Notes under the pieces: model-generated
What the model was told of the DNA's origin: nothing
Seen by the model: the letters and a program-made list of their open reading frames with translations, nothing else
Database searches by the model: none
Part shown: one piece after another, positions 23,943-59,473 of the stretch
Numbering within the stretch: the first letter of the stretch is position 1
How the letters are laid out: every line of letters begins with the position of its first letter
Origin: Ramazzottius varieornatus
Taxonomy: Eukaryota > Animalia > Tardigrada
Direction of reading: 5' to 3'
Assembly (NCBI GenBank): GCA_001949185.1
Contig: BDGG01000011.1
Span: forward strand, 326,123-390,122
Length of the DNA stretch: 64,000 bases
Made by a program: the position numbers and the translations under genes

Positions 23943-24562
23943 TTATGAGGAAAAGATGAGTCCATCTTGAGCCAAATCTAGTGCTGTGTGCCTCTTTGGT
24001 AACTGACACAGTGGATTCTGAAGTGTGCGGAGTCGCTTTTCCACAGTTTCAGAACCGAGGGCCAAAATGTTTGCCGTCACTTTGTGGTCAGCTTTCTTTG
24101 CTCTGCGCCACCTCAAGAAATCATTAGGATCGTATGCTTCGAAAACCACTCCCAAACGTTTCATGAAGTTCAACCATGATAGGTACTGATTGAACGTTGG
24201 TCGGCCGTCGATGTTTAGGAAATCGTCTTCTTTTGTCAGTTCAACTCCGTACTCCGTTGCAGATTGATCGACCATCTTCTGCCCGCACTTGAATTTTACA
24301 AATTCGAATCCTGGCCGGTGGCGAATGTGTTCAATCATCGGTGTGTCAGTTGTCTGCCAGTAACTAAGAGCAAGTCCGCAATGAAAGCACTCCACCAGTC
24401 CCGTGCTATGCTCCTTGCAGAAAAATCCCGCGCTGGCTAATTCATAAGGCTGCTGGACGTCAAACTTACCCAGTTGTAGAAGGTTACGAACCGAGTTTCG
24501 TGGTTAGTCATTGGTTTGTAAACGATTGCATCACTCCAGAACCCTTCGTCGTTAGGTCTCAT
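23943..24562 (-). pseudogene. BIR-domain (IAP-like) protein with one near-complete BIR and a second degenerate BIR
   Basis: ETRFVTFYNW (frameshift) ELASAGFF...VECFHCGLALSYWQTTDTPMIEHIRHRPGFEFV, where the last Zn-ligand Cys reads Phe. A second repeat reads EKRLRTL...LDLAQDGL. Confidence 0.8.
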
Positions 24563-24781
24563 GTTCGGAACAAAACACAAGCGAAAAATTCAAGACTGGC
24601 TCACTTTCGTCCGACGGGTAGAACTGATCAATTCGTGCTGATGGGTACTAGAAAACTGTTGTCGCTTGTGATGGACTGCAAGTGCCACTTACGGTCCTGT
24701 ATCTGTTTTACGGTTCACTAGATTACTGTCACGCCCAATACAGTCATTTTGCTTCTTAGCAGCCATGTTACAGTCGCAATT

Positions 24782-25820
24782 ATGGGAACTACCGTAGTTC
24801 TTGATTGTGATTGGTTTATAATTGGGAAGCAAGCTTCGCTCAAAGTTTTGTCTTATGCAGTAGTTAGCGGTACCCTGCACGGCGACATAACGTTCAAGCT
24901 GCCGCAAACTGCCGCTCGATTTGGCGCAGACCTCGCCAGACAACCGCTGCATTCACACGGTCTAGTCTGGTCATCAGAAGGGCAGTTTCAGCAGCACCCA
25001 CTTCCAGAAATCTTCGTGTATCTGTTCAATCAAGTCATAAAGAAACGACCAATCGAGATCGAGTTCTACGCTAAAGGCTAGTGCTGGGATAAATACGATA
25101 TGATATTCTCTGATAAATATCTTTCAATATTTATATCTCGTTTTAGATATCAACCACGTATCGATATTTCGATATGATACGTTTCTGATACATTTTATTT
25201 TTGATTTATCGAATTTTATTACAGTGATTTATCGATATATCAAGCCAGTACCATGTTGAAAACTATCGAAATCAAGAAAGTTCCAAAGTGAAACCAAACG
25301 GTTGTCGCTCACTACGTTCGAGTCAGAACAAAGTCAAATGTCTTCGTGTACGCGTGTGTTCGTTGCTCATTCTATCAAGATCTGTCGTTACGCACCTAGG
25401 TACGCTGACTGTTCACTTCTCCGAAGTCAGCTTGGAAGCATGTGCGCGATACATTACGGGCGAGGCTGCGCTGCCTGCGCGGTACCGAACCGGAGTATTG
25501 ACTTCCGAAGTTCCGATTCTCAAGTGCGGGTTTGCGATTTATCTATATCAGAAATATATCGATATACCGCGATATGATATTTTCATTTATCATATTCCGC
25601 TCAGCGATATTCCGTCCATACCGACATGTCAATATGATATTTTTGTCATATCGAATCACTGTGATGTGATATATTTCGATAAGATACGATATATCATATT
25701 TATCTTAGCACCACTAAAGGCATACAAAAGTGCCGCTTGCTAGAGTCGTGGTTACATACTGTATATAATCTGGAAGATCTAGGCTGTCCTCGTTTTGACC
25801 AGCTGACAGACAAACCGTAG
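24782..25820 (+). pseudogene. DEDD/DnaQ-like nuclease of the kind found in Polintons, interrupted by a hAT MITE
   Basis: VVLDCDWF...LKVLSY...HGLVWSSEG...FYAKG continues in frame, once 25079-25713 and one TSD copy are removed, as IQKCRLLESWLHTVYNLEDLGCPRFDQL. Confidence 0.65.
25079..25713. mobile_element. hAT-type MITE, 635 bp
   Basis: 8-bp TSD CTAAAGGC at 25071-25078 and 25714-25721. TIRs are TAGTGCTGGGATAAATA and TATTTATCTTAGCACCA. Dense GATAT/ATATC subterminal repeats lie at both ends. Confidence 0.9.
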
Positions 25821-25852
25821 ACCACTTTGAACAAAGCTGTGGTCTTTGGGTC

Positions 25853-26368
25853 ATCGTTAACTACCCACAGATCCGGAACATCGGCGCGACCTGCCAGCTA
25901 GGATGCAAGTTAGATCTGGATAAAATTGAAGTCAGATTGCCTATGGCTCTTTATACTCCTAAGCGATTTTCTGGGATATCAGTCCGTATCCTGCAGCCAT
26001 ATAAAGCACACTGTCAACTCTATACTGACGGAAAGATGACAGTCAACGGAGCACGAACGCTGCGCTCTGCGAAACGACTGGCTCGACGATTCTGCTCGCT
26101 TTTGAGAACACTGGACTACGACGTCTCGGTTTCCGACTTTCGAGTGGTCAATATAATTACATTTTTTGACACAGGTCGAAGACCACGTTTGGAAGAACTC
26201 TCCCAGAGAACGAACGCCATGTATTTTCCTGAAATTTTCCCAGGTTTACGGGTTAGACTGAGTGGGTGCAGTGCAATATTATTTCACAGCGGCAAAGTTA
26301 AATTTTTGGGCGCCAGAAACAAACTGGATGTTGACGCTGCGTATTTGGAGCTGTTACTTCATTTATGA
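25853..26368 (+). CDS. Intronless TATA-box-binding protein (TBP)-like core domain inside the Polinton-like block; start codon apparently lost
   Basis: PQIRNIGATCQLGCKLDL...YTPKRFSG...QLYTDGKMTVNGA...DFRVVNII...YFPEIFPGL...ILFHSGKVKFLGA follows both TBP repeats. The frame is open from 25799, with no ATG before the homology begins. Confidence 0.85.
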   Translation: MVNYPQIRNIGATCQLGCKLDLDKIEVRLPMALYTPKRFSGISVRILQPYKAHCQLYTDGKMTVNGARTLRSAKRLARRFCSLLRTLDYDVSVSDFRVVNIITFFDTGRRPRLEELSQRTNAMYFPEIFPGLRVRLSGCSAILFHSGKVKFLGARNKLDVDAAYLELLLHL

Positions 26369-29300
26369 ACAGTAGCTGTACGGCTTTGTATTATATTCTT
26401 CATCTACGATAACACGCTTGTCATAAGTAAATTGACACCGTTTGTTCTGAACAGAAACTTGATGCAACTCCAGATGTTTCTTATTCCGTCGTATAAGATC
26501 CGTATACGGAACAACTACAACGTCTTTTTCCTTCAGCATTCGTAGCACTGAATCGAGGTTGACCAGTTGTGATGCTTCTCCTTTCAGTGCGAAGCCCTTC
26601 ATCTTGACCAAGGATTTATCAACGTTCGTCACGTAGGCGTATGACTTGGGTCCCACGGTGGCAAAACGTGTAATATGCTGCTCCGGTTTAATTCACTGGA
26701 TAAGTCACCTAAAAAGTTTTACACCGGTGAATCAGTGTCCCCTTCCCGACTGACAAATATTATGGAATCCGTATTTAAACACCGAAATAGCTTACTGCTG
26801 TACGTAATATTCGGACGACACACAGAAATTTGTATCTGGTTAATTACCGATATACGGTACGCGGTTTGCGCGTGAACCTTCCACTTAATCCATATACTTA
26901 AGTGGCAGTAATCGAGCGTAGCAAGTAGTGAACGCAGCTACAACTACGTTAACGGTGGCGTTAGGTTCCGCAAACCCGTCGGCAGACTTGTACGACAACT
27001 GTACAGTATTGTCGTTGATGAGGCCCCGTGACGTGACCGTACTTTCGCCCGACAACATTCTCTGCCAAAACTTTCCGGGTTCCGTGAAGAACTCGGTGTT
27101 CGCGCGATTTTCTTGCATACCGAATCGCCCCCAGAAACTGTTGAGGTGCAACTTCGCCAGTGTGCGGAGACCGGGATTGGAGACAATGTTGTCTGCCTTA
27201 AGCGTGATACCCTTGTGTTCTTCAAAGTCTCGTACGTACTGCACTTTCTTTTCATCGGTGTCACCGTCGTCAGGGTATCCGCTAGCCTCCGTTTTGATTT
27301 TATAAAACAGATCAATGTATGGTCGGAATAGCCTTTCTTTGACTTCCTCCCAGTGGTATACCTCACGCACTTTGAAGACCGTGTAGCCATGATCGACTGC
27401 TGCACGAAGCTCTGGTGTACACCATGTGCCCCGTAACGCGCGCTGGTCGTCACAATGCAAACAAGGATCTTTCTTTTGGGATTCGGCTCAAGATCGACAC
27501 AGCGGGACATCTCTTTTTCCTTTACATCTCACGGGTACTACAGGAATGTGCAACTGTTTTGGGGTGAGCATCTCGCACTTAACGAGACCGAAGTAATTGG
27601 ACAAACCGTGAAAGTTTTTGGTAACACTTTGATGGTGGCCAAACGGATAGCGACATGTTTTGTTTACCCAGGGGTACTCAGAAATGACATCCAAATTGCG
27701 GATTTTTTCGTCAGGTGTAACGGAGTGGTACAGTTTCAGTCGATTATTCCGCCCGCCGTAGAACGCATCTCGCGGCACTAGCGGTTCTGTCGGCTGATAT
27801 GACTTGACAAAAGCTCGCAAGTCACCATCTTACGGTTTATCTTCGGTAAACTGACACTCCCAGCAAGTAACGACTCCATATCCCTCTTGTTCCAAAAACC
27901 GCTCGCGTGCCTTCGTGTCTTCAAAAACTTCTTTCATGGTTTGCTTCCGGTACGGATGAGTAGCTCCCGGGTAATAGCATTTATGACATCCATGATAAAA
28001 GCATCTGGTCAGTGGCTTCGCAGAACCCGTCCACGTAGAACGATCCGATCTTTCTTTCCTGGCCGTTGAAACGATGTTCGATATCGATGTTGCGCGTTCG
28101 GGCCACCGACTCCATCCATTGAACAGCTACGACAGACTGCAGGCGGTTCAAGCCGTGATGCGACATCACGCCGATCTGTTTTTCTTCCACAAACTTTGTA
28201 CGCCAGAAAACGTTACACACCCCAGCAATGGTAGCAGCGGAAACAAACGGACATGAACCATCAGTAATGTCCATCTATAACTGACGGAATTGTTGGCAAC
28301 ACAACCGCAGCACTGTGACGTCCATTCGACAACACGCGTACATTTCTTGCTCAACATGATACCGTCCGTTCTTCTCACCTGATCTTTATTGTACCATTCT
28401 AGGAACGATGCCCTCTCTCGTTCGCGTATCTTCGAATAGTCAAAGTCGGCTAGTCCAGGATAGTCAATGCCGTCGGGAAGATTCCAGTTTCGCGAACAAT
28501 TTAGCTTGTGAGGAAAAGATCCTTTACTAATTCATTGCAGTCTAAAAGTGGCTGGCCATTTGGCTAGAGACTGTGGGTCATAGTAGTGAGTCTCTAAAAC
28601 AAATACGATACTTTTCGATATCCATTCGAATGATCTTGTTTCCATTCATGATGAGTTTAAGCATGATTCCGTTATCGATAAGCCACTTCAGAACAAAATA
28701 TCCATCAAAGGCCCGAAAGTTGTGGGCTATGACGTAAAACCCCTTATGTTTTGGCTGAAATATGTAGTTGCAGAGGTCGTCTGATGTCTCTTCCAAACGG
28801 CTCGCCTTCTTCAGGGAACACCGTTTCCTTTCCTTAATCATCCTGGATTGCGGCCATATTAGGGACCAGTACACCCGACTCACTCACATACGTTCCAAAA
28901 TCCAAGAACAAAAGGCGAGCGCTTTTGTGGCGCTGTCTGTCCTTATCCGAAAAACGTAACTTTTTCATGTAGCACTTGTGATCCGGCAATTGGTACGATC
29001 CGCAGTATGACAATATGGATCGTTTCATCCGTGTTCATTTCCCGGTGTACGATTCCGATCGTTGATCGTCTTGTAACATTCCTTACATCGATGGATATAG
29101 CTGCACGGGGCATGCCAATTGTTTGGTCCTGCTTTGCCTTCTGACTTGTGGTGGTCGTAGCAGTCTTGTCCGAGGAATACTCTGTTGCAATCGGGACACG
29201 GTATTTCAGGGTCTTCGTCACATGGGCATTGGTGACGTAGGCACAACGGACAGCGATATTCGCACCGATGGTCATGTAGACCGTTGTAACCCTTGTCACA

Positions 29301-30277
29301 TTTGTGGAACCCTGAAACATCAGACTACAGATGGTTGTATACAGTAGGCCACGCTGAGTGCATACTCACAGTAGCTTTTCTGAAAAAAACCAGTGAGTGA
29401 CATAGCACGTCATAATGGTTACCGTGATGGTAGAGTGGAATTCGGTTCTCGGCTTCAGGACCTTTCTCGACAAAGCTGTCTAAATGATTGGCACTGCACA
29501 CGTTAATTTGGGTGCCGGCAGCACCTAAGGAGGAGTAACTGTTCTAACTGTAGGTGTAGTGCATACGATCCAACACTCCGAAAAATTTCGTACCGCTTCG
29601 AAGGCAGGAATGTCGGCGATCGAGTAGACTCTGACAGCTAGACCAGCTTCTTCAATGAGTTGTAAAGCCTTGGACTTTTGATGCACAGTGCGCTTGTCGC
29701 AGAGCTTTTTGTATTCTGTGCGGTTTCCTTCGGAATGTGCTATCCCAACGACGATTGCACGAGCCATACAGATTTCGTTGCAGTTATCAATAGTCACAAT
29801 GCTCATACTGCGTTTTAAACGCTTTTTCAAGCGACGTGGTATTTTGCCAGAGCCTGCTTCGAATAGCGGTGTTGCGTAGCTGACAATAATATTGAAAGAA
29901 TCATCGAACTTGGATTCTTCTTGAGAGTTTAGAACCGTCTGTACCTCGAGCATCCATCGGTCCACGGTCAAGTCGAACTTGAGTACAGGAGGTGTCCAGA
30001 TTGGTATCTCCAAAGAACGAGTTTCAATACGTAACCCAACCAAATCCTGATCCGAAACGTTCGCTTGCACAACGTCTAGTATGTGTTGCAGTATAGAAAG
30101 CATAGTTGCAACGGCATCTTCAAAGCTCACTTCTTGCATATTCCGTATACTGACTTTGTACCGATCGAATGTGAGTCCATAGCGTTTACAAAACGATCAT
30201 CATCCAAAGTTATCGGTATGCTCGCAAGGCCCACTGCAGCCAAATTCTGGCGACTTGGTTACATCAGTTGAAAGCAT
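26363..30277 (-). pseudogene. Protein-primed family-B DNA polymerase (Polinton/Maverick type) with many stops and frameshifts
   Basis: Exonuclease motif AHNFRAFDGYF, FRDS, a VSR-like insert (FYVDGF), PRDAFYGGR, motif A DVISEYP, GTWCTPEL, KTEASGYP, motif B KLHLNSFWGRFG, a damaged (D)TDS near 26765, GPKSY, KMKGF and YDKR. The N-terminus has CMARAIVV, HYDV and a Cys-rich region. Confidence 0.92.
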
Positions 30278-34018: not shown

Positions 34019-34376
34019 CGAGAAAACCCGCCTATCTTCCTGCAATATCGGTTTAAGCATCATGATGTAACGGTTGGCGCAATCCCCTTGTGAGCATATT
34101 CTCAGTTACAGGCTCGTCTGTGACCATGACACAGCAGCAAATCTCGGTTTGGTTTTTCCAGAATAGAATCCAGAATTTTGATACGACACTGTGCGTACTG
34201 ACAGAGAAACTATTGTGAAGTAAGCCTGGATATCGTAGTTACAATAGGTTAGTTGCAGTCGGTACCAATTACCAAACTGCAGATGGGGTGCATAACCTAT
34301 GTGCCCATAAACTAGTCAAAAAACTGCAACTGCAGGAATGCATTCCTACGTTGTATTCCCACGTACTGACAGTGCC

Positions 34377-37300
34377 TTAATGCCCAGACGCCATGTTGTA
34401 GTTGCCGAAAATGTCCTCGTGATAGCGGTCCGTGCTCTACAGAACAAAGGATACGATGATTGCTGTGAAGAGTTTACGGCAGAATTGCGCCCACATTTCA
34501 TTACCCGCAAGTGGTTCATGAGGTGCTGCGTTTGGACGGCGGTGAAGCCTCCAGCCTCAAAAGCTTGCCGAATGGCATTATACACACCAGCTGCCATTCC
34601 CACATCTCCACAGACGTAGATATGCGCTTCCCGCACACGCACATCCGGCAACAGCGTTGCCGCAATTTTCGGTATGATATCCTGCACGTACGTCTAGAAA
34701 CGAGAACAACCGATGCCCAGAAGATTTTCCCAACAGGAATCTTCAACGTACCTTTGGGACGTTCGCTTGTCGAGACAGAGCCAAGTGAAAACTTGTCAAA
34801 ACGCCGTCTCGCTGCAGCTGGTCGATTTCCGCTTGGTAGATATGGTCTAGCTCAGAGTTGCGACAGCCGAAAATGAGGTGGGCTTCCACATTGTCAGCCC
34901 GGTGGCTGGCACGCAGCTTTTCAAAGTGCTGCCAGAAGGAGCGGAAAGGCGCGATACCCGTACCCGCGCCGATCATATAGATGGGCACGGTCATTTTTTC
35001 CGGCAACCGAAACGTCGACGCCCTGCAATATTCTATCTTTAAAGATGTGAGCGTGAAAATCAAAAAACACCTCTGTGTTACGTACGTTCGAATGTAGTAG
35101 TGGACAGGGCTGTCCAGTTTGCGCTGGCTCAAGAAGGCGGTACAGACGCCATTGTGGACAGGTCCGGTGCCGTTCTGGGTTCGGTAGGAGATTAACCCGA
35201 CAGTGGCGTCGATGACTTTGGGGTTGGTCAATGGTGAGGAACTGATGGAGTAGAAGCGCGGCTGCAGCTGAGGCAGCTCGATCAACAATAACGTCGCATC
35301 CACTTCCACCGATTGGAATTCCTCCAGGACTTCTAACAGTGTCGGCCACTTGAACGTTTTCCATGCTTCGTACTCCTCGGTGTTCTATATTAGTCCGACG
35401 GTACAACTACTCATCGGGCAAGGTTAGCTTGACAATTTTCCTATAGGCGCACCTTGGAAAGTTGAAGAAGCCTGTCGTGCTCTTCGGAGCTTCTAGCTAG
35501 TGAAGCCAAGCTTTCCAGTAGCATTTGCGAGGGTGGAGTGGTGATGTCCAAGAAGGAGGCGAAGAGGACTTCCATGGGCGCCACTGGTAAACGCACCAGT
35601 GCTTTCCAGGACTTGGTCACCGCTACAAAAAACCAGCGCTGACTGACACGAACGCCACATTGTTATTGAACCGTGAAGGAAATTACCCACCCATTCCGGA
35701 GGCTTTCTCGACCAGCACTTCCACCTGGATCGGTGCCTGGTTGGGTCGCATACCCAGACGGTCCAGCAATGCCGCCACCTGCTGTGGATCATTTTCGGCA
35801 AAGATGGCCACGTGGTCGCCGGGCTGGTACGAAATGTCCTCCTCGCTCTCCAGCTGCACCAAGATGGTCTGTCGCGTCGACTGCTTGCTTTGCAAGTTGC
35901 GCCGACTGAGCAACTTGCACTGCTGCACGTTTTTATTGTATGTCCCACTCAAGGCTACAGCAACAGTATGCCAATTGATCAAGCGATACTGTTACTGTTG
36001 AGCTTTTTTTTATATTGAGTACCTGTCTGCAGATCTTCGCTGACGGCGGCAGCGTTGGCCCGCAAGCGGTAACGACCCTTGGACCACGAGCTGTCACCAT
36101 TGGACAGCGCAGCTTGGGCGTCGACCATGTTGACGTCATCGCCGAGACAGAAGACGTCGCAGGCTACTTTGAAGACCTCGTGGGCCCACAGCTTGAAGGA
36201 CTGATCTTGCCCGCGAAGCTCGTCGCCAGTGTGTATGGGCAGGATACACTCGCCACCCAGAGCGCTGAGCGACTGGTCGACGTAGTGAGCGAACGCGCAA
36301 AAGTGGGGATACGAACTGGAGCCCAGGCCAAAGACGGCGTAGCGCACGTTACTCAACGGACCACCTAAAAATAACCGGACGAATGTCTGTACAAACTCGG
36401 TGCCTTTCGGTATGGAAAATCGGTTTGACGGACACTACACTGACCTGTGTCCATAAAGTTATCTTGGTCAGCAAAGGTGGTCTGCCGGGAGAAACTGCCT
36501 TCAACACTGCGCGTGTCCATCCGAATATACGATTGGGATTTCTTCCTGTGGAAATACACTCCCAACGTGACTGGGAAGTTCACCAAGTATTACTCGCGAA
36601 TTTGTTTGTTAGTCTTACCCTGAGATGTCATCCGGACAGGAGAGCTGGTGCAAGTAGGCCGCGATCTCCTTGCCATTGTCCGGCGGGTCGCCGTTGCCGA
36701 AGGTACTGGTAACGACCAGCAGCAGTGCTTCGTGCTCGAGGTGGGCCAAGTCGTAGTGTTCCGCACAGACCACGTTGACGTCGAAGCCGTACTTGAAGAC
36801 GTCAAAGAGCGTTTTGGCGTACCGCTCCGACTTACCCGTTTCTGTCGCGTAGATGATGGTGGCACGAATGCGACGAGCCAGCGCCTTTGCCATCAACTTG
36901 GCCGAGAACTTCACCGCTCTAAAGACTCCCACAAATTAATGTAACTTCTTGGGAAAATTCAAACCAACTTATGCGAAGTTTCCATTTTCTTCGTTGGTTT
37001 TACCGCGCGATTTCTCGAAAGCCAAATTTCCGCTTTGGGTTAGATTTTTGCGCCGTCAACTTGACCTTGTCCTTTTTCCACACGTGCGCTTTCCATGCTT
37101 CGTCCTATAGGGAATATCACGTAATACAGAGATTGACAACAGTCTACTGTCCAGATGAGCATTTACCGGGTGCCCAGTCGCAATTTTCATAAACTTTCGC
37201 ACTCGATATCGGTTGTCCCTGCTAACGAAATGCTCCGCTATCATGGGTTATTAATAAACCTTTCTCCCTCCACTGTACCAATAACAGATGGACACTTGAT

Positions 37301-40300
37301 CAATGCGAAGAGTACCTCGCCACGAAAAAGTGATTCTTTAAGGGAAGGCAAACTCGCTCATTTTTCAACGGCCATCTTTCCTTTACTGTACCTCGCAATG
37401 GAAAACCTTTTACTCGTGTCCTTGACTGGGTATAGCTAATCAAAAATTGCAACAGTTGTTTTTTCGAGACAAACTTCAATTAAGGATGCCCATTCCGCCT
37501 GACTTGCTTACTGGAACGGAATTCGGATCCGAATTCCGTTCCGTTCCTATCTTCCGTTGTCCAGAACGGCTAGACAAAAAATCGGAATCCCAATACGGCA
37601 GTTCAAAAACCAGTCGCAAGCTCGGTTTAGCCCCGTCTCTCAGTAAGATCGTGTCCAAGTGGCGCACGAAGCTGACCAGTTATACTGACAATGTGCGCCA
37701 CTTAGAGATCAATTTTGTCGAGGTTGTTTGCCGTGCTTCTATGTAGTGAGCAAAGATGACACCAGAACTCGACACTTGGCGCAAAAAGTGGGACTTTCGC
37801 CGTGGAAAACCGGATTCTGACAAGAGGAATTCTTTGTCCTTGAATTTCGATTCGGAATTCCAGCGTTCCAAGTCGTCCTCAGCCCGAACGCTGCGGAATT
37901 CCGATTGTCCAGGCGGAATTAGGAATGGAACGGAAAAAGGAACGGGCATATTTAACTTCGACAACATTGTGAGTTACTCATGTGACGGCGACCTCACTGA
38001 ATGCTTGCCGGCGAACTAGACCTCAAAGGAAGGCACAATTCTCTCTTCCGCCTTTGCAATTGTTTTTGCCACATCTTTGACTGGCGTTTACGATTAGTCG
38101 GCTTTTCGTAGGAGGAAGCATTTTGTGAAAATTACGAATAACCACCCGGTAATCTTTTCCTCGAATGCCAACCAGTGTCTCACAATAAAACACCAGAAAA
38201 GCCTTCCGTCAATTCAATGACTACACGTTACCTTTGATTACAAAACTCTAGACTAGTGTCGCAAAAATGTCACTTTACGCGTCGTACCTTCGTTATCGAA
38301 GGTTGATCAGTTCAGACTTAATGGTGTCTTTTGAGTTTAGATTATAGTTGTACTCTTAGTGGAAATGTTTTTCTGTGTGGGGGAAAAAGTACCTGATAAT
38401 CGTAGCAGGGGGATAGTCTATAGTCCAGCATTTCCTGGTGGTAAACCGAGACTAAACTGCCCCCCATCGGCGGCACAATCCACACCTGCAAGGTTGAAGA
38501 TGAGTACATAGGCAAATGCCTTCCGTTGTTTACACTTTTCCGTGAAAGTTGTTCGACCTACCCAATCAGCCGGACATCCGCCGCGCGCTTTCTGATAAAG
38601 GAAAGCAATAGTTATCAATACAACTAATCATTCACTCCTTAGTCTGGAAAACTGCCGCTTACCTGTTCGTTCTCCAGGTGCTTCATGAAGGACTCCGAAG
38701 CGGAGTGATGGTCGACAATTGTGACGTTGACAGACTGAAAGCTACTGAGGATAGCCTTGTTTAGCTCTAAGAAGGTCTGGTCTTTCCATAAGGAGGAGGC
38801 GCGACTTGTGTCGAACTCAAAAACGTTGGCTATGTCCTACCGACAGGCAACATCATTCGCTCTCAGCCCTCCTTCCAAATCCAAAAATTCAAAGCTTTGA
38901 AAAATCACACTGACTTCTAACAAGTTGTAACGAGTCGGATCGACGAAATCCCTCGCAATTTCCGTTTGCATGTACCAGCCTACGAGTAACCACGCTACAG
39001 CTTCAAATCTGTTCTCGTCTCTTGACTGCATATCATGCTGTGAAATTTATTTCGTTTACCGCTAAAAGCGACAGCGGGGAAGAATACTCCGCCGACGTCG
39101 AAGACCATATTGGCCACAGCGGGTAGTGCGTACCATTTCAATCCCATTTCGGCCAAGCCCGGGTACCTGAAATTTCAGGTTTTAATAACTGTCGCAAATT
39201 TTGAAAGATATAAGACCTGCTTTGACTTACTCTGCATGATGTATGGCCACTTGAAGAACAATATCCCGAGGGATGTCAAAGTATTCAGGATCTTGCCCAG
39301 CGGCTGACAGAACTAGTGGAAGCACGTCAAAGCGACCACCGGAACCCTTCCATCCCAACTTGTGACACACCTTGATATCGAAGAAGAGGTGGAAGTTTTG
39401 TTGGATTGTCAGCTTGATGTTCTATACAATGGAGGGAAATTACTTCGGTAAGCTCGACGGAAGCAGGGTCGCCAATGACGCTGCCGTCTTCCTGTTTGTA
39501 TCCCGCATAGCGGACCAGCTGGGCGTTCCAAATGCGAAAGTCCTGCTCAGGTGTAGTCCGTTGCTTGAAAATGGTAATTGCTGAACGGAGGTTACCGCGG
39601 TTGGTGGAGTACTTGATGTGGTTTAGCAGAGCCTCAAACATGGTGCGGGGCGTATTGATAAACCGAGCGTCAAAGACCTTCGAATCGATCATTGCTAGTT
39701 ACTCCCATCAAAAGCGTTGTAAACTCAGAGAAAAAATAGTAGTAAAATTAACCCGGCTTGGTACTGTAACAGAAAAATACCTGTAGTTTTGACCATTGAA
39801 TTCGACCGATACATCGTTGTGAATTGCGCCATGCTGATTTTGCGGCAAAGGTCAGTTCCTGCTCCTTGAATTCGTAGTTACCCGTGGCGTGGATCTGGGC
39901 TTCCACTTCGGCCCAGCGCGCATCGTGAGCCGGTGTGTTCAACCTACAAACACAATTTGTCAGTCTACCCTAGTAACCCCACAGGGTGGCACTACTCGAA
40001 GAACTGTACCGTTTAGCGGACTCAAAATATTGCCGAATGAAATCCTTGGCCAACAGCAACACTTCCTCAGTCGATCGCGCAAGCGAATTCTGTGGTCGCG
40101 ACAAGTTTAACAGCGACGCGGTGCAACGATTTGCGGTACAACCAACACTCTGTACAGAAACCATATGACAAGAAAGAATCAAACTATCAATACGACAATC
40201 ATTTATGATAATCTAATGACTAATTTCGAACAAGTTTTCAGTAATTGTTAAAGTGGTTATTATGGAAGTTTAATGTACAAGTGAAAACGGTAGGCCTTAC

Positions 40301-41706
40301 TTGGGCTGTGGATCGATGAAGAGTATCGACGAAGGTTTTGCCATCGAGCAAGTTCTTCAGCTTGATGTACTTCTTGATATGGCTGGGACTGGGTTGAGGT
40401 GACAGATGATGATGGGCTTCAGCGTCCAGTGCGGCACTGGAGCGGGGTCCCAAGCGCGTGTGTTGGCTGTTGACCATCGATCCGTCCTTGACGGGTCGCT
40501 CTTCTGACAGGTCACCCGTTTTTGATGGGATAGCATGTGACGACAGAATACCGTTAGGAGCTGTCATGAAGCTTCGACGTCTCGCAGCAGTTCGTGCGTT
40601 ACCTGGAATATCAAGGCACAAATTGTCGTCCCAGAAAACACGACGCATTCTCTATCGTTTAAACCCGGATACCATCGTCCAAATTTTCAAACACGCATGC
40701 CAATCTTTTCTCGTCGAAAATTTTTGTTCGAAAATTTTGTGCAAAACTAGCGAAAAAGTATTGTAGATGACACTGCAAAAACAAAAAAAAGACTGATGAA
40801 TAAGATCAGCCAATCCAATTGGAAGTATTTGGGAGCTGGATGGATACTTTTGACAAAACTGATCCACCAAGTGGCGCACAGTGTCAATCGAAAACACTGA
40901 AAAAGTGCGCCACGTGGAAAACGATCTTGCCGATTTAAGTTCTTCCATGCTCCCGTTTGACAAACAACTAAACAAAATTTGAACTGCAACTTGTAAGTCC
41001 TACCCGAAAAGCCACCGTCCAGAATGGCCGAGCTCAATCTTCGGTCTCTCGCATGAAGTTGTTGCTGAACTTGCCGTTCTCGATCACCACCAAAGCTGCT
41101 TGGTGGCGAAGGTCGCGGCGCTTCGAAAACGTCGTCGTCCATCACTTTCCCATGTTCTTTTTTCGCACTCGCATTCAGGTTTAGAAGTCCCTGCATCATC
41201 TCCTCGATCTTCCCCAGCCTTTCCTGCAAGTCCCGATTGAACTTAGCCAGTTGTTCCGCCGAGACCTCGACGCCGTTTCGGTGTTCGCCATTTTGTTCAA
41301 CAACGGGACAACTTGCGATCGGATGTCCATTCTGCGCCGCCGTCAACGTTAACGGTTCAGTAATTCTTCGAGTCCTCGGTGTTCCATTCGAATCGTAGTA
41401 CGTCACGACCTGTATGCGACAGTTGAGCGGTCCTTTCAGCAAAATGACCGCGGGTCTTTCGACCGGCAACGCGTCCAGCACGGCCAAGACCTGCTGAAAG
41501 TTCAAAGTTTCCACGTTGACGCCATTGACGGCGCTGAGGCGATCGCCGATCGTCACTAACTGACTTCTCTCGGCATCACAACCCGGTACGAGGCCAGAGA
41601 TGACACAAGCATGATTGACCTCGTCGTTGTGCAAAAGGAAACCCAGTCCGTAGGATGTGCGTTTGATAACGCGCAGCTTGATACTATTTCCAGTAGAACC
41701 GTCCAT
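34377..41706 (-). CDS. NOS: Nitric oxide synthase with an N-terminal PDZ domain (nNOS-like architecture)
   Basis: PDZ (GLGFL) with a beta-finger, Zn site CTANRC, heme motif [35 protein letters not shown], CaM-binding helix [21 protein letters not shown] motifs YATETGKSE and [12 protein letters not shown] motif [15 protein letters not shown] motif [13 protein letters not shown], and C-terminal YHEDIFG. Confidence 0.96.
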
Positions 41707-43543
41707 TTCCGTCAACAACGAGGAAGGAAAAACATGAATGTGGAAATGATACAGGATACAGAAAGGTTTATGGAATGAGAAGTTGTGTATGGAATAAAGA
41801 TGTTTATGGCATGGCACCGGGGTGCTATGGAGGGGATTACATTCAAGATCTGCTGGTGTATTGTAGAAGAGAAGACTTAAGGCTTGTTGTCTGCTCAATG
41901 CACTACAGTATCATAATACTCGGGTTCCCGCAGGCTGCCAGCTTTAAAGGAAACATGTCGGGAAGGATGTGAAGAGCGAGCGGGTGATCTGAGCTAATCA
42001 CCATACGCGCACAGGGAGAGCGTTCGTTGTCAGGATGAAGATGATTGAAAGGTGATGGAAGATGACAAGTGGGGAAAGCAAGAAACCATCGATGTGAAAA
42101 TCTCAGTCCAATAACAGACACTCGATATCAAATTAGAATTTCAGGATGATTTCCACGATTACGTAAACGACACACTAGTAATTTGTATTTAATGTTGCGA
42201 TGATTAGTCGTGACTTCACGTTCGTAATCTCGTCAGAACGCAGACAGGAACTCACACCAGATGAAAACTCTTTCAAATAGACATACGACACGCGGGATAA
42301 GAAACCCTCAGCCACGGTCTGCATCAGGTTTGTTAACTGCAGCAACTTAGTCATTATGAAAGATTCCCATCAATGTGAAAAGCCAGAAGATCAACCTGAA
42401 ATTTGCCACAATATTTGTTAAGCTCCGACAAGTAGGCAACTTTCAAGCTGAAATGCACTTCTAGAGACTGTATTATGTTGTGAACGCTGATGTTGTGAAG
42501 AATACGAAGAAAGAGAATGATCGTAGGAAGAAGAAGAAAAAGAAACATGGCGTAATTATAACGGATGTTGGACATGCCACTATATTCCTTCTTGAAGTGA
42601 ATACGCAATTACCACTGCGACGTCGACAGGCGACAACTCAGTATATCCGTATGCTTTTCCCTTATGCTTGTCTTTCTGAACTGGTACACCTGTACGGTTT
42701 CTCTCTAGCGACCCACGTAGAATGTTTAGTCTATCAAGCCAGGTGAATTTCCGTCATCGGGGATATTTCCTCCCAACACGCACTCAGATGGATATGGCCC
42801 CGGTTCAGCCTTCATGTTTATTCATGCATGATTATGGCTTGTAAGATCAATTACGAGCGTCAAAATGTTTTCTCAAGGGAATCATGAGAAAACCCACGCA
42901 TTCGATACAATTCCGTATGTGTGCGTACGGAAGATGCTGTTAGTCTCTCTCACAGCCAGCGGCGATGAAAAATTGTTCGAGGAAGACCTTCCTGGCTTTT
43001 GATAATTCCTTTTGAATTGGGCTTATTAACCCTATCTCGTATGACATACCTGGGGCTGAGGGAATTCCATCCGCAAGCAGACCAGCCGTCCATGTAACGA
43101 AGGTACACGAGTTTCTTCTCTGCAAAGCGAAATCGTAACGTTAACATGTTCAGTCGGGCTAGCTAGAAGAAAATTGCCAATGCTCCATTCGTCTCAACCG
43201 TCCCCGGGTCCTCTGAAGAAGGTCCCGTCACCAGCCTGCATCCTTCTTACATGAAAAGGTTTCGCCAAGCCTTTCTTGCTTGACGGTCGTTGAGGATGTG
43301 GTTCGAATACCTATAAAAAAATCTGGCGTAAACAAACCTGTCATATCTGGGATAACAAAGTGGCGCAATATCCAGCCAATTCCACAAATCCACAAACCCA
43401 TTTCAGACTTGGCACTCCACTGTTGATTGTTGATTAAAGGTTTCAGAAATTGAAATTTTCAATTTTCAAAAAGTTATCCACACAATCTAACTTTTTCTTC
43501 TTCTCAGAAATCTTTTCACAACCGTTTTCCTCCTGACTTACCC

Positions 43544-46534
43544 ATGGCTGATCGCAGCTGTCAGCCTCCATTATGGGGAGATGGTATGCCTTCGACTTCC
43601 AGCGGGATCCGATATGGCGTTTTCGATGCAGGCTTGGCGGGTGTGCAACCGAATACGGAGATGGTTGTCGACGACAGCCAGCCTGAGCCAGAACCGGAAC
43701 CCACTTCATGGCAGCTTGGAGGACTTGCTTCGGCCTTTCTTGTTCCACCGATACCTAAAGACAAAGAGGAACCATCACTCGTCACTGCAGTGAAGTCAGA
43801 AGAAGGAAAGCCAGCCACTTCTGCATCAGGTGAGTTGGGAAATGCTGGAAAATGAAATTCGATGGAAATAAATACAATCCTGAAATTTAGCACGCCACGC
43901 TGTGTTAAACCAGCTCGGTCAGCTGTAAGACGTCATGAGCTTGTCACGTGTATTTAGACGTTATCGTTGCGGGTTTGATCACGTGGACATTAATGTTCTA
44001 GGTTATGAAACCACCTTATGGTCTGCTATGTGTATGGTTGTTCCTTTTTATAACAGATGGCCCACCAGTGGTCCGGAAGCGAGGAAGACCACCGTACGCC
44101 AGCCTTTCTCGAGGTGATTCTCCCGCCATGGCGTCGAACTCTGGTACATGTACACCAAAGAAGCTGCTCCGCAAGCTCAAGTCAAAAAAGAAGCGCCTAA
44201 CGATGCCCAAAGGCGGCGGCGTGTACCAGCTGAAACGGGTGGTGTCCAACAAGACCTCTCCCAACGCCATCCATCCCTCGGTCCCGAAAGACGGACTGAC
44301 TGACGGTGAACGAACAGATCGAATGACGCAGCTCATTCAAAACTGTCCAGAAGAAGTGAGCAAAGGTTTGAAAGACGCAACGGTGGTGGTGGAGTCCATG
44401 ATACGCGAAGCGGAAGCCTATCGCAACGAAGTGAAGAAGAATGGGAAGAATATGAAGGCTCTCGACGAGATGACGGTTGCCCTCGCCGAAGAAACCAAAG
44501 CTAGACAGATCAAACAAGATACGTTGGATCTAAAGATAACGCAGGCTATCTGTCAAAAGTTCCTAACGTTGGAAACCAGTAAGGAGAACGGCGAAGAGGC
44601 CGTCAGAACCTTCTTCACAGACGGGCCTTCGGACAGTCGAATTCACCATCGTAGGAATTTACTTTCCTTACCTCCTCTCGTTGACATGCTGACGTTGGAT
44701 CCTGCTGTCATCCAGAAAGATCCTTTCGAAGATGAAGGTGATTTGGTGGGAAGAGTAAAAAAGCCTCAGCGGCCGCGTAATTTTGAAAAGAAACACGATT
44801 TGAACCAGTATTCAGCTCTGAAATTCAACTGACTCATGACGTAAACGAAATACTGTGGCTAGTGAGATTGAGGCATCTTCGTAGAGTCGACGTCATCGGT
44901 CAGAGGTTAGTTTGACGATGAGTCGTACGACGGGGATGTTCGTGTGTCGGCTGGCCATCACTTGACAAGTTCTGTACTTGGCATCCGATTGATTGGTTGA
45001 ATGTCTTGCAGGTGCGAAGGTGGTTCCATCCAACGAGCAGAAAGACGGCACAGACACACGCGAGCTGACCAACAAGTTGTACGCTATGCTGGGTCGACCT
45101 TCCCTCTCCACCCATAAACGTCATCTCCAGCGCGCCAAACGCGCGAAGGAAACGGAGAACTTGACAGAGGAACAGGTCAATAAGTCTATCGACGAGTACT
45201 TTGCCATGTGTCGATCCCTAACACCGAGAGAAACCATCCAACCGGAAAAGACTCCCTACCATTCCTTTAAAGACTACAAGACGATGCACTGTACCGAGGC
45301 GGATGAGATTGCCGACTGTGCTTCGGCCATCGAAGGGTTTCTGCACAACTTTGTCCATCCTTGCTCATGTAGAGGCAACAAGAAGTGCAGTCGATGCTTG
45401 GACGTGGAAGTGAACGACTCGACGTGCAGACTTCCGCTGGCCAGCAACGTGACGGTACCTTCGCATGCCGTGGTGTACGACTTTTGCCCGCAGTGTCAGC
45501 AAGCTTTTCCTATGAGCGGTAAGTCAAAGAGTTACCCTACAAAAAAGAAAATTGCTGCTGTGCAATGTCGAAAGAAATAAACTTATCGAGACTGTTTTCT
45601 CAAGTGGCGCACCCTTTTAGCCAGAACAATGGAAACATGCGCCACGACTGGGATGAACTATTGGCAGACGTCCAATTACGGATTTTTTTTACAGGCAAGC
45701 CAGTTACAGATGACCACTCGAAGCATGCTAGGATGAAGGCGGAAAACACGGGTGTGAGTTTCGAGTTGGCTGAGGTGAAAGTACATCCGGATAGGTGTTC
45801 AGCGGAAGAAGAGAATGCCTTGATAAGACTGCTGAATAAGAGGGCATGGATGGAAGGACAAGGGGGGTGCTTCAGACAAGACTATGGACCTGTTGTCGAC
45901 TATCAAACAAAAGAGGTATGTGTATTGGTCACCGAAATCACTAAACCAGAATGTTTGAATTTGGGTGATTGTTCGCAGGTGGATCTGGACTCTTCGACCG
46001 GTCTGCCGCAATTCCTGCAGCACGAAATCATCAAGATTAGCCGGATGTACGACAGCGCGCACCCCTTCCCGTGTGCGTCGGTATCTGTTATGGATCTGAC
46101 GTCCGAACGAGCTTCGGCCATCCAGCCGCGGGAAGAGGACGAGTGGATCTGGGGCGAACGCGTCATCTTGATGGCTCTTACTTCGGACGTTGTCATCACG
46201 CTGTCACCTCAAGCTTGGGACGGCGTCAGCGAATACCGCATTGTCCGGCTGAGAATCCCACGCCGTGGCCAGGTAATTTTCCATCGAAACGTCCCAACGT
46301 GTTCTGTGACATCTTATTTTGTGGGTTTTACAGATCGTTCTTCAAGACGATGTAAGACACGAATGGAGTTGGTCCGTCCTATCGGCTGATATCCGTGAAA
46401 AGCAGGTTCTGGTGGTTTTCAGAGAAATCAACGAGGAGTTCGTGAACGGAGCAAGTGCCGAGATCGGCAAGAAGCTGATGGAAATAAATGAAAAGTTCAG
46501 TGGCGAAGTGATAAAGATGGGGGACGGCTACTGA
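43544..46534 (+). CDS. AT-hook-containing protein with a C-terminal ALKBH4-like domain lacking the Fe(II) ligands
   Basis: Exons 43544-43829, 44057-44737, 45012-45518, 45695-45915, 45979-46272 and 46334-46534 join in frame. Motifs: RKRGRPP; CSCRG..KC..C; EEE..LIRLL...W.....G..RQDYGP; GLPQF; ERASAIQPREEDEWIWGERV; RHEWSWSV; VVFRE. Confidence 0.8.
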
Positions 46535-47209
46535 TCTTTAGGAATTTACAATATACTGATAATTGTTTCTTGATTCCCTTTCCGACTTATATACTTCGCA
46601 AGACTTATATTTCATATTTGTTGTTTTAATATAGAGCTTTGGTGGAGGTCCTGGAGGAAGGCTGTTTCACTCGTAATCTCTCACAGTGTAAACCATTTTA
46701 CGATATTGTCATTCGCTAATTGTGTCAAGTTGTGTAGTGTTTCAACTGGGTTTCGTAATGAGTTAATGATTGAAAGTTTAGGGGTGGATAAGATGAATAT
46801 TTTGACGGATAGTAGTCTAGGACTACTGTAGCAGTAGCCAGAGCTGATTTGAAGCGAAACTGGGATTATGACACCGGAAGTACGTGGCGGCCTCAAGTGA
46901 TTGAGTGTGACGTAACGTGGCCGGCTCGGCGCTGATCACAGGCACCGAACAAGGCCGTGCTCTCAGTTCTTCATTCAGGTTTTCAGAATCAAGTGTTATA
47001 TAACTCGTCTTCTCGTTCGATATGTCGTCTTCAGTCTCTAAGTTGTCGTTTGCGGTTACAGAAAGATCTAGAATTCTAATTTGTTGGGTTGTAAACTGAT
47101 CGTACAGCGCGACACGTCGGGAAAGTCGTTTGCGCTTGTCTACCAGATTGGTTATTGCACCTTTGATTGCTGATTGGTCTGATTTAACCGGTGCGAAGTT
47201 GTGTGTATC

Positions 47210-48793
47210 ATGGCCCTTCGGCAAATCGGCTCGGACCCTACCGGACGCAATGCTCTTCTGACGCGGGACAAGAACCAAACTGTACAACAGGAAACTGCCA
47301 AAAGATCTGCAAGCGAGCATGCCGTCAACGCTATCCTCGTTGGACCCCCCGGCTCCGGGAAAGGCACACAGGTACGCACTTCAGTTTACTTTTGACGTCA
47401 CACTTTCATGAGGAGCGGTTGCGGCCGTTTGTGAAGCAAAAAGTCCGTCTGTAAAATGACTCTACGACTTATCATGGCTGTGACGTCATGTGCCAGTGGA
47501 GATGGTTTTGCTAGTGTTTGTTGGTGGTTTCTTGCTTTTCGAACCGCGGTAGACGTTTCACGTATGTAAGATTTTCGTTTTTCCGATTACAGGCGCCGAG
47601 GATAGCAGAAAGATATGGGGTGTGTCATTTGGCCACCGGTGAGCAATATAGGAAGCGCAATAGAAGTCTATTGGATGACCGGAAGTTGTCGACGACGCGA
47701 GATTCTACTGTGGTTGATTGAGACTCCGTTACGGTGACTGATTGATGAGACGCTGAAAGATCTGGCTAATTTCTTTTGTTTTACAGGTGATCTCCTTCGC
47801 GCAGAAATCGCTTCCGGGACAGAACGCTCACAAAAGCTGAAGAAAACGATGGACGAAGGAAAGCTCGTGAGCGATGAGACCGTTGTGGAGTTGATCGACC
47901 ACCGGCTGGACCAGCCAGATTGCAGTCGTGGCTTCCTCCTCGACGGCTTTCCTCGAACGCTCAATCAGGCTCAAATGGTATGAAACTGTTACCTCTACTT
48001 CGTCGAGAGGTTTAGTTAGTTTGTTCTTTTGCAGTTGGATAGTCTTTTAGAGGAGAAGAAGCGCGCACTGGACACTGTGATTGAATTCGGCATTGACGAT
48101 TCAATGCTGGTCAAACGCATCACCGGCCGTTGGGTTCACCCTCCCTCTGGACGCTCATATCACGAAGTCTTCAACCCTCCCATAGTTCCTGGAATCGACG
48201 ATGTACGTATAATGTTGTTGTACATTTGGGACGTTGGCAAACGATTTCACACAGACTTATCCCAAACGGCGCACTTTCTCGTTGCTGCTAGCTGAAAGTG
48301 TGCGCCACTTGAGAAGCGATCTGGTTCAGGTCATTTTCTGAATTTCCATTTGTTTCGCGGTTTGTCAGGACGCTCACTACCTGACGGGTAGCGACGCTTT
48401 TCATTTCTGTGAATTGGACCGAGTGTGAATCTAGCATTTGCAAATCGCACTAGGGTGACAGATGCGGAATGCACATTATAAATGCGGACATATTCGCATG
48501 TAGGTAACAGGGGAACCTTTGACCAGGAGAACTGACGACAACGTTCCGACGTTGACGAAGCGTCTCACAGCATACCACGCGCAAACGCAACCTCTCATCA
48601 ATTACTACCAGAAGAGACACATACACCACGCCATCGATGCTTCGAGAGAACCCGACACTGTGGAGAAGGAAATCGAAAAAATCATCGCTACAACAAAATC
48701 CAAAGATAAGGTAAGAATATTAGAATATCTGTTTGCATGTTTCGAAACTTTCACCTGGTTTTCTTCCAGGTTTCCTTCTGCTCGCTTCAGTAA
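47210..48793 (+). CDS. AK2: Adenylate kinase 2 (mitochondrial intermembrane-space type)
   Basis: [54 protein letters not shown] and YHAQTQPL across six exons. Confidence 0.93.
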
Positions 48794-49400
48794 AGCAGTG
48801 GGAAGAAGAGCGACAGTTCTACCTGGTCCGAGAATGCCGGTTTCGCTTTCGCGAAGTTTGATGGTAGCGTATTTGTTACTTTCTTCCTTTTTCTTCGAGC
48901 AGATTAAATGTTGATTGTTGGCGGCACTTTTTATGTTAAGCTTTGGACGCTTAGAATGTTCTTTTGAGAATGTTCTTTGGAAATCTTAGATGTCGCATTT
49001 GAATTTTTACCGGTTGTTCTGTCCAAGAAAGGAATTTATTTCCGTGCTGCCCCGTCAGACTTACTACCATGAAACGAACACCGTCATGACTGTTTAGAAA
49101 TTCTTATCGTCCTGGCAGAATTAGCCAGAGTTTGAATTGTCAATGCTTTTAGAAAGAAAGCGTCCTGCTGTGCTTGACGTCTTGAAAGATCGTCAAGGTC
49201 TGGGCGTCTTTTTTGGGAAGTTTGGCGTCATCCAAATCACAGCGAAAATTGTTCGACAATCGATAGTCAACTCTGCTCCTGTGCAAAGTACGGCTAATCA
49301 GGATCTGTCACAGTAATCACAGGAATCAAATTCATCCAAGGTGTGCCCTTGCCTTTGACAGATTTCGGAGCCCTGACTAATGTCCTCTCGAGTAACCGTG

Positions 49401-57126: not shown

Positions 57127-59473
57127 CGAGGGGATTATGCCTGTCCCCACCTCTTTTTGGTCAAACTGTCCTGGCGGACCGAGAGAGGAGAGTCTCTTCT
57201 AGGATCTGAGCCAGTGAGCTAAATCCCGCGTCGATCCTGGAACAAACTACAGGGACTCGGGAGTGACGTCAAAAGTAGGGCGGTATATAAGCAGAGTAAT
57301 GAACAATCAAGACTTGATTGTTCGATGGTTGATTTGGTTGTTGATTGAGCATGCGCTTCCTGCTCATCAAGTTTTCTGTTGTTTTTCAACCTTCTCTAAT
57401 TTGCTCATTCACTCCCGCGCTTCTCTGAAATGGAATCCATCAACTTGCTGAATGTTATCAAGCTGCTGGAATGGGACTAAAAACTGCACTGCCGTATCGA
57501 CGTCTTTCCAAGCGAAGCTGACAGGCAGTTCAAGGACATAGTTAAAGGTAATCCTGCTGTGCACTGGAGCTCAAAAACAAAAAAGATACTGATTTGATTC
57601 GTAATATTTCCTAGATTTCATCGACCGAAGATCACCCAAAGTGTTACTCCTGTGTATGCCGTTGAAGAAGACCTCCAGTATGATCTGCAGGTCCGCGTCG
57701 AGTCATTTGAAGATTACGAAGCATCTGTTGTCCAGTGCAACCTGCTGAATGGCCGGAGTGAAGCTGACTTCGACGTTACGGAATCTGATAGACTGCTTGA
57801 GCCTGTTTTCAGCGGAACTGTACCTTCTTCCTATGAGCTATACATCCCACGACTTCCTAACCTCAAGCTTCCAGTGGATCAGTTAGTCAACTTGGAGTAC
57901 AAGAAACGTGCGGTTACATACTGGAGAAACGCCGTGAAGAAGAAGCGTCTCACGTTGGCCACTGTTCAGAGAAGTTTTAGTAAAGTAACCAGCATACGAC
58001 AGCTGTACGACTGAGAAAAGCAGGTAGTGGAAGGCGGTTCCAGGCTGGACAAGTTGAAGGCTATACGTTTGGATGTCGGTAAACAGTTCTTCCTCGCTAA
58101 AAGGAAAAAGCAAGTGGTCAAGGATTTGGACTTACGTCGATGGGCTCTCACTGCGAACGAAACGGTGGACTTGGCCGGTTTCACTGCTTCCCCAGACTGG
58201 ATCGGAAAACTCAAACGGTACCAACAGTTTTTTGTGCTTCGATTTCCTTCAAAAACGAAATTAGTATTTTCTAGATATTATGGGATCGTTGACCGGAAAA
58301 TAACCAAGTTCGTCACCAAGAAATCGTACAAGAAGCGCCTCACGTCAAGGAAAATGCTGAAGCCTGCGTTGCGCTTGTCAGATCAAGGATCACAGAGTAC
58401 GGGTTAGACTGTCTGTGGAATGCGGATCAGTGAGGCTTTGAGTATGAGGTCAGACCAAGAAGAAATTTCGAACTTGCTGGAGTAAAACACGTGGAAGCGA
58501 TCACCCAGTTGGAGAATTCCATGACACATAGCTACACTGTGATGATGGCGGTCTCCCCGGGCAGGCGTAAGTTTCTTCCTGTTCTTTTCCTAACGCTGAA
58601 AGAAGAGAAAGGAGTGTTTGGTCCAATCGTGTCGAGAACGATGTTCAAGGCTGATAATCTGTATGTCACTGCTCCGACATCCGGGAAGATGACCAAGAAG
58701 CTCTACTTAGAGTGGTCAGAAAAAGTTCTTTTCCCTCATATGGAAGAGCGGTGCGTTTTCTTGGCCGACTCGTGGAAGACCTTCACAGATCAAGATTCTG
58801 TGATTGAACTGAAGCTGGAAGAGCTGGAGTACGAAATGCTGACCATCCCTCCGAAAGTTACCGATCAAATTCAACCGCTGGATGTGTTATGCTTTAGGAT
58901 GTACAAAGGCTGCTTCAAGAAGATATCCGACTTTGTCTTTTTGCACGATTTACCAGTTCAAGTGCATCATCGCGATGTGATTCTGAGATTGCACTCTTTG
59001 CTGTATCAACAGTTTCAGTCGCCCAGGTTCGAAAATTTGATAGCTGAAGCTTGGCATAAGTCGGGATATACCGACGAACGTTTCATGTATGTTAATCCAG
59101 CCAAGTTTGTTTTTGATAAGCTGAAAGCCAGTTGTCTTCACGAGAACTGCAGAGACATTGTTCTTCTGGTTTGCGGGTGGTGCAAGGCCCGTCTTTGCTT
59201 CCATCACTTGTATGACGCTCATCTACTTGCCGTAACAAGTTTGTTTACTGATGGGTTTCAGGGTTCGTTTGTTAGGTCTAACGTGGACCTACAAGACATC
59301 ACGTTTCTACGTTATTGGCATAAATTTCTGATGTCAATTCCGAGTCCCTGTAGTTTGTTCCAGGATCGACGCGGGATTTAGCTCACTGGCTCAGATCCTA
59401 GAAGAGACTCTCCTCTTTCGTTCCGCCAGGACAGTTTGACCAAAAAGAGGTGGGGACAGGCATAATCCCCTCG
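57127..59473 (+). mobile_element. Tc4/Tc5-like (pogo superfamily) DNA transposon, 2347 bp, full length but defective
   Basis: About 145-bp near-identical TIRs (57127-57270 / 59330-59473) and a 3-bp TSD TCA (57124-57126, 59474-59476) that reconstructs the target CTCAG. Confidence 0.93.
57430..59235 (+). pseudogene. Tc5-like DDE transposase with two probable introns and several stops
   Basis: CENP-B-like HTH (DLRRWAL...FTASPDWI..LK) and DDE motifs NADQ*GFEYE, FLADSW and IQPLDV, plus a C-terminal Cys/His cluster. Stops at 57478, 58012 and 58431. Confidence 0.88.

Follow-up and report, generated by a model that had tools for sequence, protein, structure and literature searches.

A conserved, apparently non-catalytic paralogue of ALKBH4 in tardigrades

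A 64,000-nucleotide window of the Ramazzottius varieornatus genome (contig BDGG01000011.1) carries on its plus strand a gene whose product ends in an ALKBH4-type domain with most of its catalytic ligands replaced. The replacements recur in other tardigrades, where an intact ALKBH4 is also encoded, and by comparison of these sequences the protein reads as an old, conserved pseudo-enzyme paralogue of ALKBH4 that has very probably lost catalytic activity. The true substrate and role of ALKBH4 itself are disputed, with 6mA DNA, actin, and chromatin partners all under discussion. For the dead copy, a role as a non-catalytic nuclear adaptor, with the basic arm directed to chromatin and the dead fold holding partners, is a reading whose chances we consider evenly balanced.

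Gene structure and the ALKBH4 fold

The gene has six exons and five introns, each bounded by GT..AG, and splicing yields a reading frame (43544-46534) of 729 aa, stop-free and open across every joint (Table 1). Contigs from four public runs, which represent at most four studies and whose RNA label is a guess although the contigs are spliced, contain four of the joints in all four runs and the first joint in three, and a single 2440-base contig (run X3, 43487-46726) crosses all six exons. The clean six-exon gene proposed in the first-pass annotation from the DNA letters was thus recovered joint by joint in spliced contigs. Although one contig alone would be no proof, the frame is open through all joints and the Paramacrobiotus orthologue (LOC129580667) is annotated as a single 740-aa protein, which together support that the AT-hook exons and the ALKBH exons form one gene. 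Its product is identical to a Ramazzottius varieornatus database entry named only "hypothetical protein" (RvY_14859, P0001). A pseudogene or artefact was rejected on account of the open frame, splicing, and conservation. Runs X23 and X24 contained no divergent allele. Within intron 3, contigs match a short stretch at 45587-45624 and then diverge (X24, with a loose end at 45616 in X1), probably reflecting a small repeat.

Table 1. Coordinates of the exons and main sequence features of the gene within the window
Feature	Residues	Position	Strand	Remarks
Exon 1 (coding part)		43544-43829	+	predicted disordered; carries the DSQPEP...WQL motif
DSQPEP...WQL	44-58	43673-43717	+	3/3 species; 11/16 and 10/18 identical
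Exon 2		44057-44737	+	AT-hook, basic patch, first helical region
AT-hook-like RKRGRPP	102-108	44074-44094	+	in 2/3 species models
Basic patch ending KKRLTM, NLS-like	130-145	44158-44205	+	3/3 species; 10/20 and 15/20 identical
Helical region 1	173-305	44287-44685	+	long predicted helices; 46/133 and 51/133 identical (35-38%)
Exon 3		45012-45518	+	helical region 2, ALKBH4 Cys cluster, NVTVP stretch
ALKBH4 Cys cluster	440-484	45362-45496	+	within exon 3
Exon 4		45695-45915	+	N-terminal extension and Flip1/Flip2 lid; basic substrate-binding residues replaced
Exon 5		45979-46272	+	double-stranded beta-helix core: L605, R616-x-E618, L629
R616-x-E618	616-618	46129-46137	+	equivalent to NMAD-1 H184-x-D186
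Exon 6		46334-46534	+	W676, Q687, R693, C-terminal domain, stop
W676	676	46370-46372	+	equivalent to NMAD-1 H239

The C-terminal part, described from its motifs as ALKBH4-like in the first-pass annotation, belongs to the ALKBH4/NMAD-1 clade by descent and fold. Residues 431-724 match Caenorhabditis elegans NMAD-1 (8HB2) with an E-value of 6e-24 (phmmer), and the AlphaFold model, built on a 75-row alignment and with pLDDT mostly above 90 across residues 511-720, has NMAD-1 as its best structural match (Foldseek E 1e-23). In VIA, 243 residues align with NMAD-1 at Z 27.9 and an rmsd of 2.5 A, compared to Z 17.1 for the next AlkB structure. Pfam gave neither an AT_hook nor a 2OG-FeII match to the whole protein at E-values up to 10, and no relevant match to individual exons; single short AT-hooks are frequently missed by Pfam. 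The Cys cluster noted earlier is indeed retained, with six cysteines at 440/442/448/451/481/484 that are all kept in the 4/4 orthologues with full coverage. According to PMC4738411, an N-terminal Zn-binding Cys cluster is a defining trait of the ALKBH4 clade. The Cys cluster, N-terminal extension, lid, beta-helix, and C-terminal domain follow in the same order as in NMAD-1 (PDB 8H68, 8HB2), from which the dead copy differs by its ligand replacements, a lower lid charge, and 430 extra N-terminal residues.

Loss of the active site and duplication history

The metal and 2-oxoglutarate ligands of NMAD-1 are H184, D186, H239, Y173, S197, R250, and R256 (PMC10278977, PMC10815869). In the phmmer alignment, six of these seven are replaced (Y173 by L605, H184 by R616, D186 by E618, S197 by L629, H239 by W676, and R250 by Q687), and R256 alone is kept, as R693. 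The HxD/E...H metal triad is absent, with R-x-E...W in its place here and R-x-E...W/Y in 4/4 orthologues, the 2-oxoglutarate set is reduced to R693, and the core contains no histidine common to the four orthologues. The first-pass annotation had pointed to the replaced triad and to a changed Arg region, and its motifs lie where it placed them (RKRGRPP 102-108, PREED 615-619, WSWSV 674-678, and KQVLVVFR 686-693). Among the ligand sites, R256A is the only single Ala change that does not abolish DNA demethylation by NMAD-1 (PMC10815869), and for activity on actin every ligand Ala change, R256 included, inactivates the enzyme (PMC10278977). Since single Ala changes at these ligand sites inactivate NMAD-1, the loss of catalytic activity in the tardigrade protein is strongly indicated, and the dead enzyme that had been proposed is further supported by the conservation of this loss in orthologues.

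A search of 1.84 billion representatives using exons 4-5 as the query yielded 145 matches. The best of these are orthologues, namely LOC129580667 (P0004), the Hypsibius models BV898_15389 and BV898_15391 (P0025 and P0003), and two fragments (P0002 and P0007). The two Hypsibius models, both on a contig of equal length, are divided at the intron 4 site, and one further locus number falls in the gap; they are probably one mis-split gene. All core-covering orthologues (4/4) have R-x-E, W/Y, and Q, while the other matches retain Y, H, and D throughout (139/139), and the corresponding R, E, and Q replacements occur in 0/139, 0/139, and about 0/118 other ALKBH4s. The distal His (108/126), the first Arg (104/118), and the second Arg (103/118) are also kept by most other ALKBH4s, and most exceptions at these sites are truncated or misaligned models. 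Residues R616, E618, Q614, Q687, and V691 are fixed in the dead copies and each is present in at most 3% of other ALKBH4s; outside the pocket, T470-V471-P472, W645, Y651, and R652 are fixed as well, and the stretch NVTVP (468-472) is paralogue-specific. Over residues 566-722, the Ramazzottius and Hypsibius dead copies are identical at 79/156 positions (51%), compared to 93/153 (61%) for the intact copies, suggesting that the dead domain is strongly constrained. In addition, a transcript of Acutuncus antarcticus (PMC11233135 supplement) has three dead copies as its best matches. Two more homologue searches returned only close Ramazzottius-like fragments (P0147-P0149), and as one of them missed P0004, their sensitivity is limited.

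An intact ALKBH4 is encoded in 3/3 annotated species, as RvY_03236 in Ramazzottius (P0010), BV898_01679 in Hypsibius (P0005), and LOC129582264 in Paramacrobiotus (P0011), and the canonical gene that the first-pass annotation expected elsewhere in the genome therefore exists in the same species. RvY_03236 is hidden from name searches because it is joined with pyridoxal kinase in one 663-aa model, probably a run-together gene model. Unlike the dead copies, to which they are 31-39% identical, the intact proteins keep HxD..H and both Arg and are without the long N-terminal arm.

These intact tardigrade ALKBH4s are the nearest relatives of the dead copies in an IQ-TREE phylogeny of 40 rows (13 chosen and 27 drawn at random from 98 well-covered rows, other matches being omitted), which comprised ALKBH4-like sequences only, without any other AlkB clade. 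All four dead copies are monophyletic (100/100), with a long stem, and cluster next with the intact proteins of Hypsibius and Ramazzottius (98/95, with the bootstrap incompletely settled); FastTree on all 98 rows agrees. The intact Paramacrobiotus protein falls outside this group in the literal tree, but the data do not reject a topology that unites all intact copies of the three species (p-AU 0.35, 20 rows). The simplest reading of these sequence relationships would be a single duplication within tardigrades, before the split of Hypsibioidea and Macrobiotoidea.

The N-terminal arm and possible functions

The 430 residues ahead of the ALKBH4 domain set the dead copies apart, as only 1/92 of the other ALKBH4 matches with the Cys motif has more than 100 residues in front of it, and RGRP occurs in 0/140. 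Residues 11-173 are predicted to be disordered (pLDDT <50 in the AlphaFold model). The AT-hook consensus is an R-G-R-P core with basic flanks that contacts AT-rich DNA, and RKRGRPP fits this pattern. Of the features highlighted in the first-pass annotation, the AT-hook is present here and, as KRRGRPP, in Paramacrobiotus, but it is not a defining part of the protein because the Hypsibius model is without any GRP; RGRP also appears in 124/20,000 shuffles of residues 1-175. The basic NLS-like patch is conserved in 3/3 species, and the 75 residues around KRLTM carry net charges of +16, +20, and +15. A conserved SQ and the KRLT sequence presumably fit kinase sites of the ATM/ATR and Aurora/PKA types, respectively.

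The helical segments noted earlier were also recovered, with a second region (residues 339-437, exon 3) predicted helical and conserved in addition to the one at 173-305. For residues 171-438, Atlas features gave no family and the structure rows all had TM <0.5, and a separate model of this part was poor (pLDDT 56, pTM 0.21). Foldseek returned 0 matches for the helical region at E 0.001, the best VIA match (Z 5.8) was to generic long helices, and a profile of the region run against the sequences of solved structures matched NMAD-1 only. A new fold is thus not supported by the sequence, feature, and structure searches, and as no relative was found, the role of this region is only a guess. A homodimer prediction of residues 171-305 scored 0.00 with its alignment unused, and counts neither for nor against a dimer.

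The basic arm would fit nuclear or chromatin tethering, and the partner-binding behaviour of related proteins bears on the adaptor reading. An inactive mutant of human ALKBH4 recovered a largely unchanged set of chromatin partners by two-hybrid screening, keeping p300, ENL, HSF4, and ATBF1 (PMC3493508), although these partners were apparently unconfirmed by pull-down. ALKBH4 binds WDR5 (PMC7240015), and NMAD-1 contacts nucleosomes via its C-terminal and Cys domains (PMC10815869) and binds TOP-2 on chromatin (PMC6638966). The germline role of NMAD-1 requires the catalytic Asp (PMC6638966), and the nematode function is therefore not simply transferable. Also counting against the adaptor reading, the Hypsibius model has no AT-hook, and basic disordered arms fit nucleolar or RNA binding as well.

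Under the adaptor reading, ALKBH4 would have been duplicated before Hypsibioidea and Macrobiotoidea parted, after which the active site of one copy may have been closed by Arg and Glu at the first two metal ligands and an aromatic residue at the third, with apolar residues in the cofactor pocket. This copy would have lost lid charge, retained the Cys cluster and core, and gained the surface motifs NVTVP 468-472, W645, Y651, and R652. The basic disordered arm could provide nuclear import and contact DNA or nucleosomes, with the AT-hook as an optional extra, while partners might be bound via the helical region and the dead, zinc-cluster-bearing domain, possibly subject to regulation by kinases acting on the conserved SQ and KRLT sites. 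A more specific form, in which the protein would be a kinase-controlled, eutardigrade-wide adaptor in genome maintenance or the germline that inherited the partner-binding side of ALKBH4/NMAD-1 (nucleosome, topoisomerase, or replication-factor contact), can be put forward only tentatively.

The substrate lid bears on the function suggested in the first-pass annotation, a reader or protector of methylated DNA or protein. The NMAD-1 lid requires R117/R118, F128/K129/H130, and K131/K132, whose mutation cuts activity (PMC10815869). The equivalent residues here are C550, F551, Y561, Q562, T563, K564, and E565. The Flip1 Arg is replaced by C or V in 5/5 sequences covering the position, compared to R in 125/128 other ALKBH4s, and in Flip2 the Phe is replaced by Tyr (5/5) and the Lys by Gln or Ala (5/5 covering sequences). 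In the stretch 547-568, the dead copies have 2-4 K/R, whereas there are 7 in the intact Hypsibius protein, 8 in the intact Ramazzottius protein, and 7-9 in 115/128 others. The lid of the parent enzyme is thus not conserved in any covering orthologue, which argues against a methyl-mark reader, although a changed ligand would still be compatible.

A protein that recognizes 6mA DNA or methyl-lysine (e.g. actin K84me1) and shields the mark from the intact ALKBH4 is accordingly the weaker reading and, in our view, unlikely. It would draw on the retained fold, the WxWG wall of the pocket, and the QDYGP of the lid, and the acidic PREEDE, together with the fixed aromatic residue 676, might accommodate the cationic methyl-lysine. 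Moreover, the hydrophobic contacts between the C-terminal domain and Flip2, which NMAD-1 needs for actin binding (PMC10278977), are partly kept (P557, V566). Besides the eroded lid, it is countered by the lack of detectable DNA binding by NMAD-1 in one study (PMC10278977), and searches of the accessible literature text turned up no 6mA measurement from tardigrades.

A nucleolar, RNA-associated, or cytoskeletal structural protein, whose basic arm would serve import or RNA contact rather than chromatin, is quite unlikely, although what is conserved is a basic patch of general type rather than an AT-hook, and the long helices look like generic coiled coils. Human ALKBH4 is located in nucleoli and cytoplasm (PMC3493508), and actin is a substrate of both ALKBH4 and NMAD-1 (PMC10278977). 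The RGRP core in two superfamilies, however, favours contact with AT-rich DNA.

We also doubt that the dead copy regulates the intact ALKBH4, either as a METTL14-like partner that recruits the enzyme to chromatin or as a competitor for its partners, although both copies are retained together in 3/3 annotated species and pairs of dead and active enzymes exist among N6-adenine methyltransferases (PMC4738411). NMAD-1 is monomeric in solution by SAXS (PMC10815869), the two copies have diverged to the low identity given above, and bleomycin raises the intact Hypsibius gene (log2 0.99, padj 2.8e-4), whereas the 6,656 rows listed for this treatment do not include the dead copy.

That the protein still works as an enzyme, using a rearranged metal site rich in carboxylates (E617, E618, D619, E620), is highly improbable, as the conservation of E618 and D619 in 4/4 orthologues and the retained R693 are set against the lack of a core histidine shared by the orthologues, the Arg and Trp/Tyr at both His ligand sites, and the replacement of the 2-oxoglutarate-holding Y173, S197, and R250, where Ala changes inactivate NMAD-1, and D619 needs no new role because it is conserved in 135/139 active ALKBH4s.

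Relation to known systems, stress response, and genomic neighbourhood

Dead paralogues of methyl-handling enzymes are already known, and among chromatin pseudo-enzymes JARID2 is likewise a dead paralogue. METTL14 stands beside an active paralogue (PMC4738411), as does the protein described here. Both METTL14 and JARID2 belong to different folds or families and differ in having known partners. Fusions of an AlkB domain to an AT-hook or PHD finger in the AlkBH3 and AlkBH5 clades use the AT-hook for chromatin targeting, but they belong to other clades and are proposed to be active demethylases, and the sections of PMC4738411 covered here contain no ALKBH4-clade or dead version. In the open full-text literature, with most subscription papers outside this scope, we found no description of ALKBH4 in tardigrades, of the five gene ids, or of AlkB pseudo-enzymes; the excerpt of one Ramazzottius paper covering AlkB lists just ALKBH2 and ALKBH3, and genomic CpG methylation in tardigrades is described as scarce or absent (PMC13012060).

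Within this scope, the protein has no earlier description and represents a pseudo-enzyme form of ALKBH4 particular to one lineage. If this is true, the literature searched would contain no earlier AlkB-family pseudo-enzyme, and the protein would be a case in which catalysis and scaffolding have been split in nature. Conservation across tardigrade superfamilies despite the loss of catalysis would imply that selection maintains the fold for a non-catalytic purpose, and comparing the partners of the dead and intact copies within the same animal would offer a direct route to it. The gene is also a candidate for a tardigrade-specific nuclear protein masked by automatic annotation as "hypothetical" or plain "ALKBH4". 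It represents one lineage-specific paralogue and not a new type of system, with no strong tie to extreme tolerance.

Strong induction by radiation or stress as the main feature was rejected on the basis of expression tables, and the stress link of the dead copy is weak. Neither BV898_15389 nor BV898_15391 is in the Hypsibius radiation table of PMC11233135, which is sorted by p-value and has rows past padj 0.05, and the Acutuncus orthologue is up by only log2 0.55 (padj 0.019; PMC11233135). Other expression tables contained no match among the rows listed, and the supplements of PMC9145152, PMC11413396, and PMC6925440 contained no match to the gene.

The upstream neighbour (34349-41910, minus strand) encodes a nitric oxide synthase with an N-terminal PDZ domain followed by NO_synthase, flavodoxin, FAD, and NAD domains. 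Its leader exons lie at about 43050-43119, 43251-43310, and 43543-43872 (minus strand, with CT..AC joints in runs X1 and X10). The start of this spliced minus-strand leader lies within exon 1/intron 1 of the gene for the dead ALKBH4, and the two genes thus overlap head to head. At the end of a contig from run X10, 43050 is joined to 41493 within the PDZ frame over a canonical intron, and one synthase isoform would therefore lack the PDZ start. Farther upstream, several short frames at about 23900-30200 (minus strand) encode a protein-primed B-type DNA polymerase (PF03175, E 1e-13) and a BIR domain, and look like a decayed Polinton/Maverick-like element. Downstream, a spliced adenylate kinase gene is located at 47209-49086 (plus strand), and remnants of a Tc5/pogo-type DDE transposase are found at 57598-59378 (plus strand).
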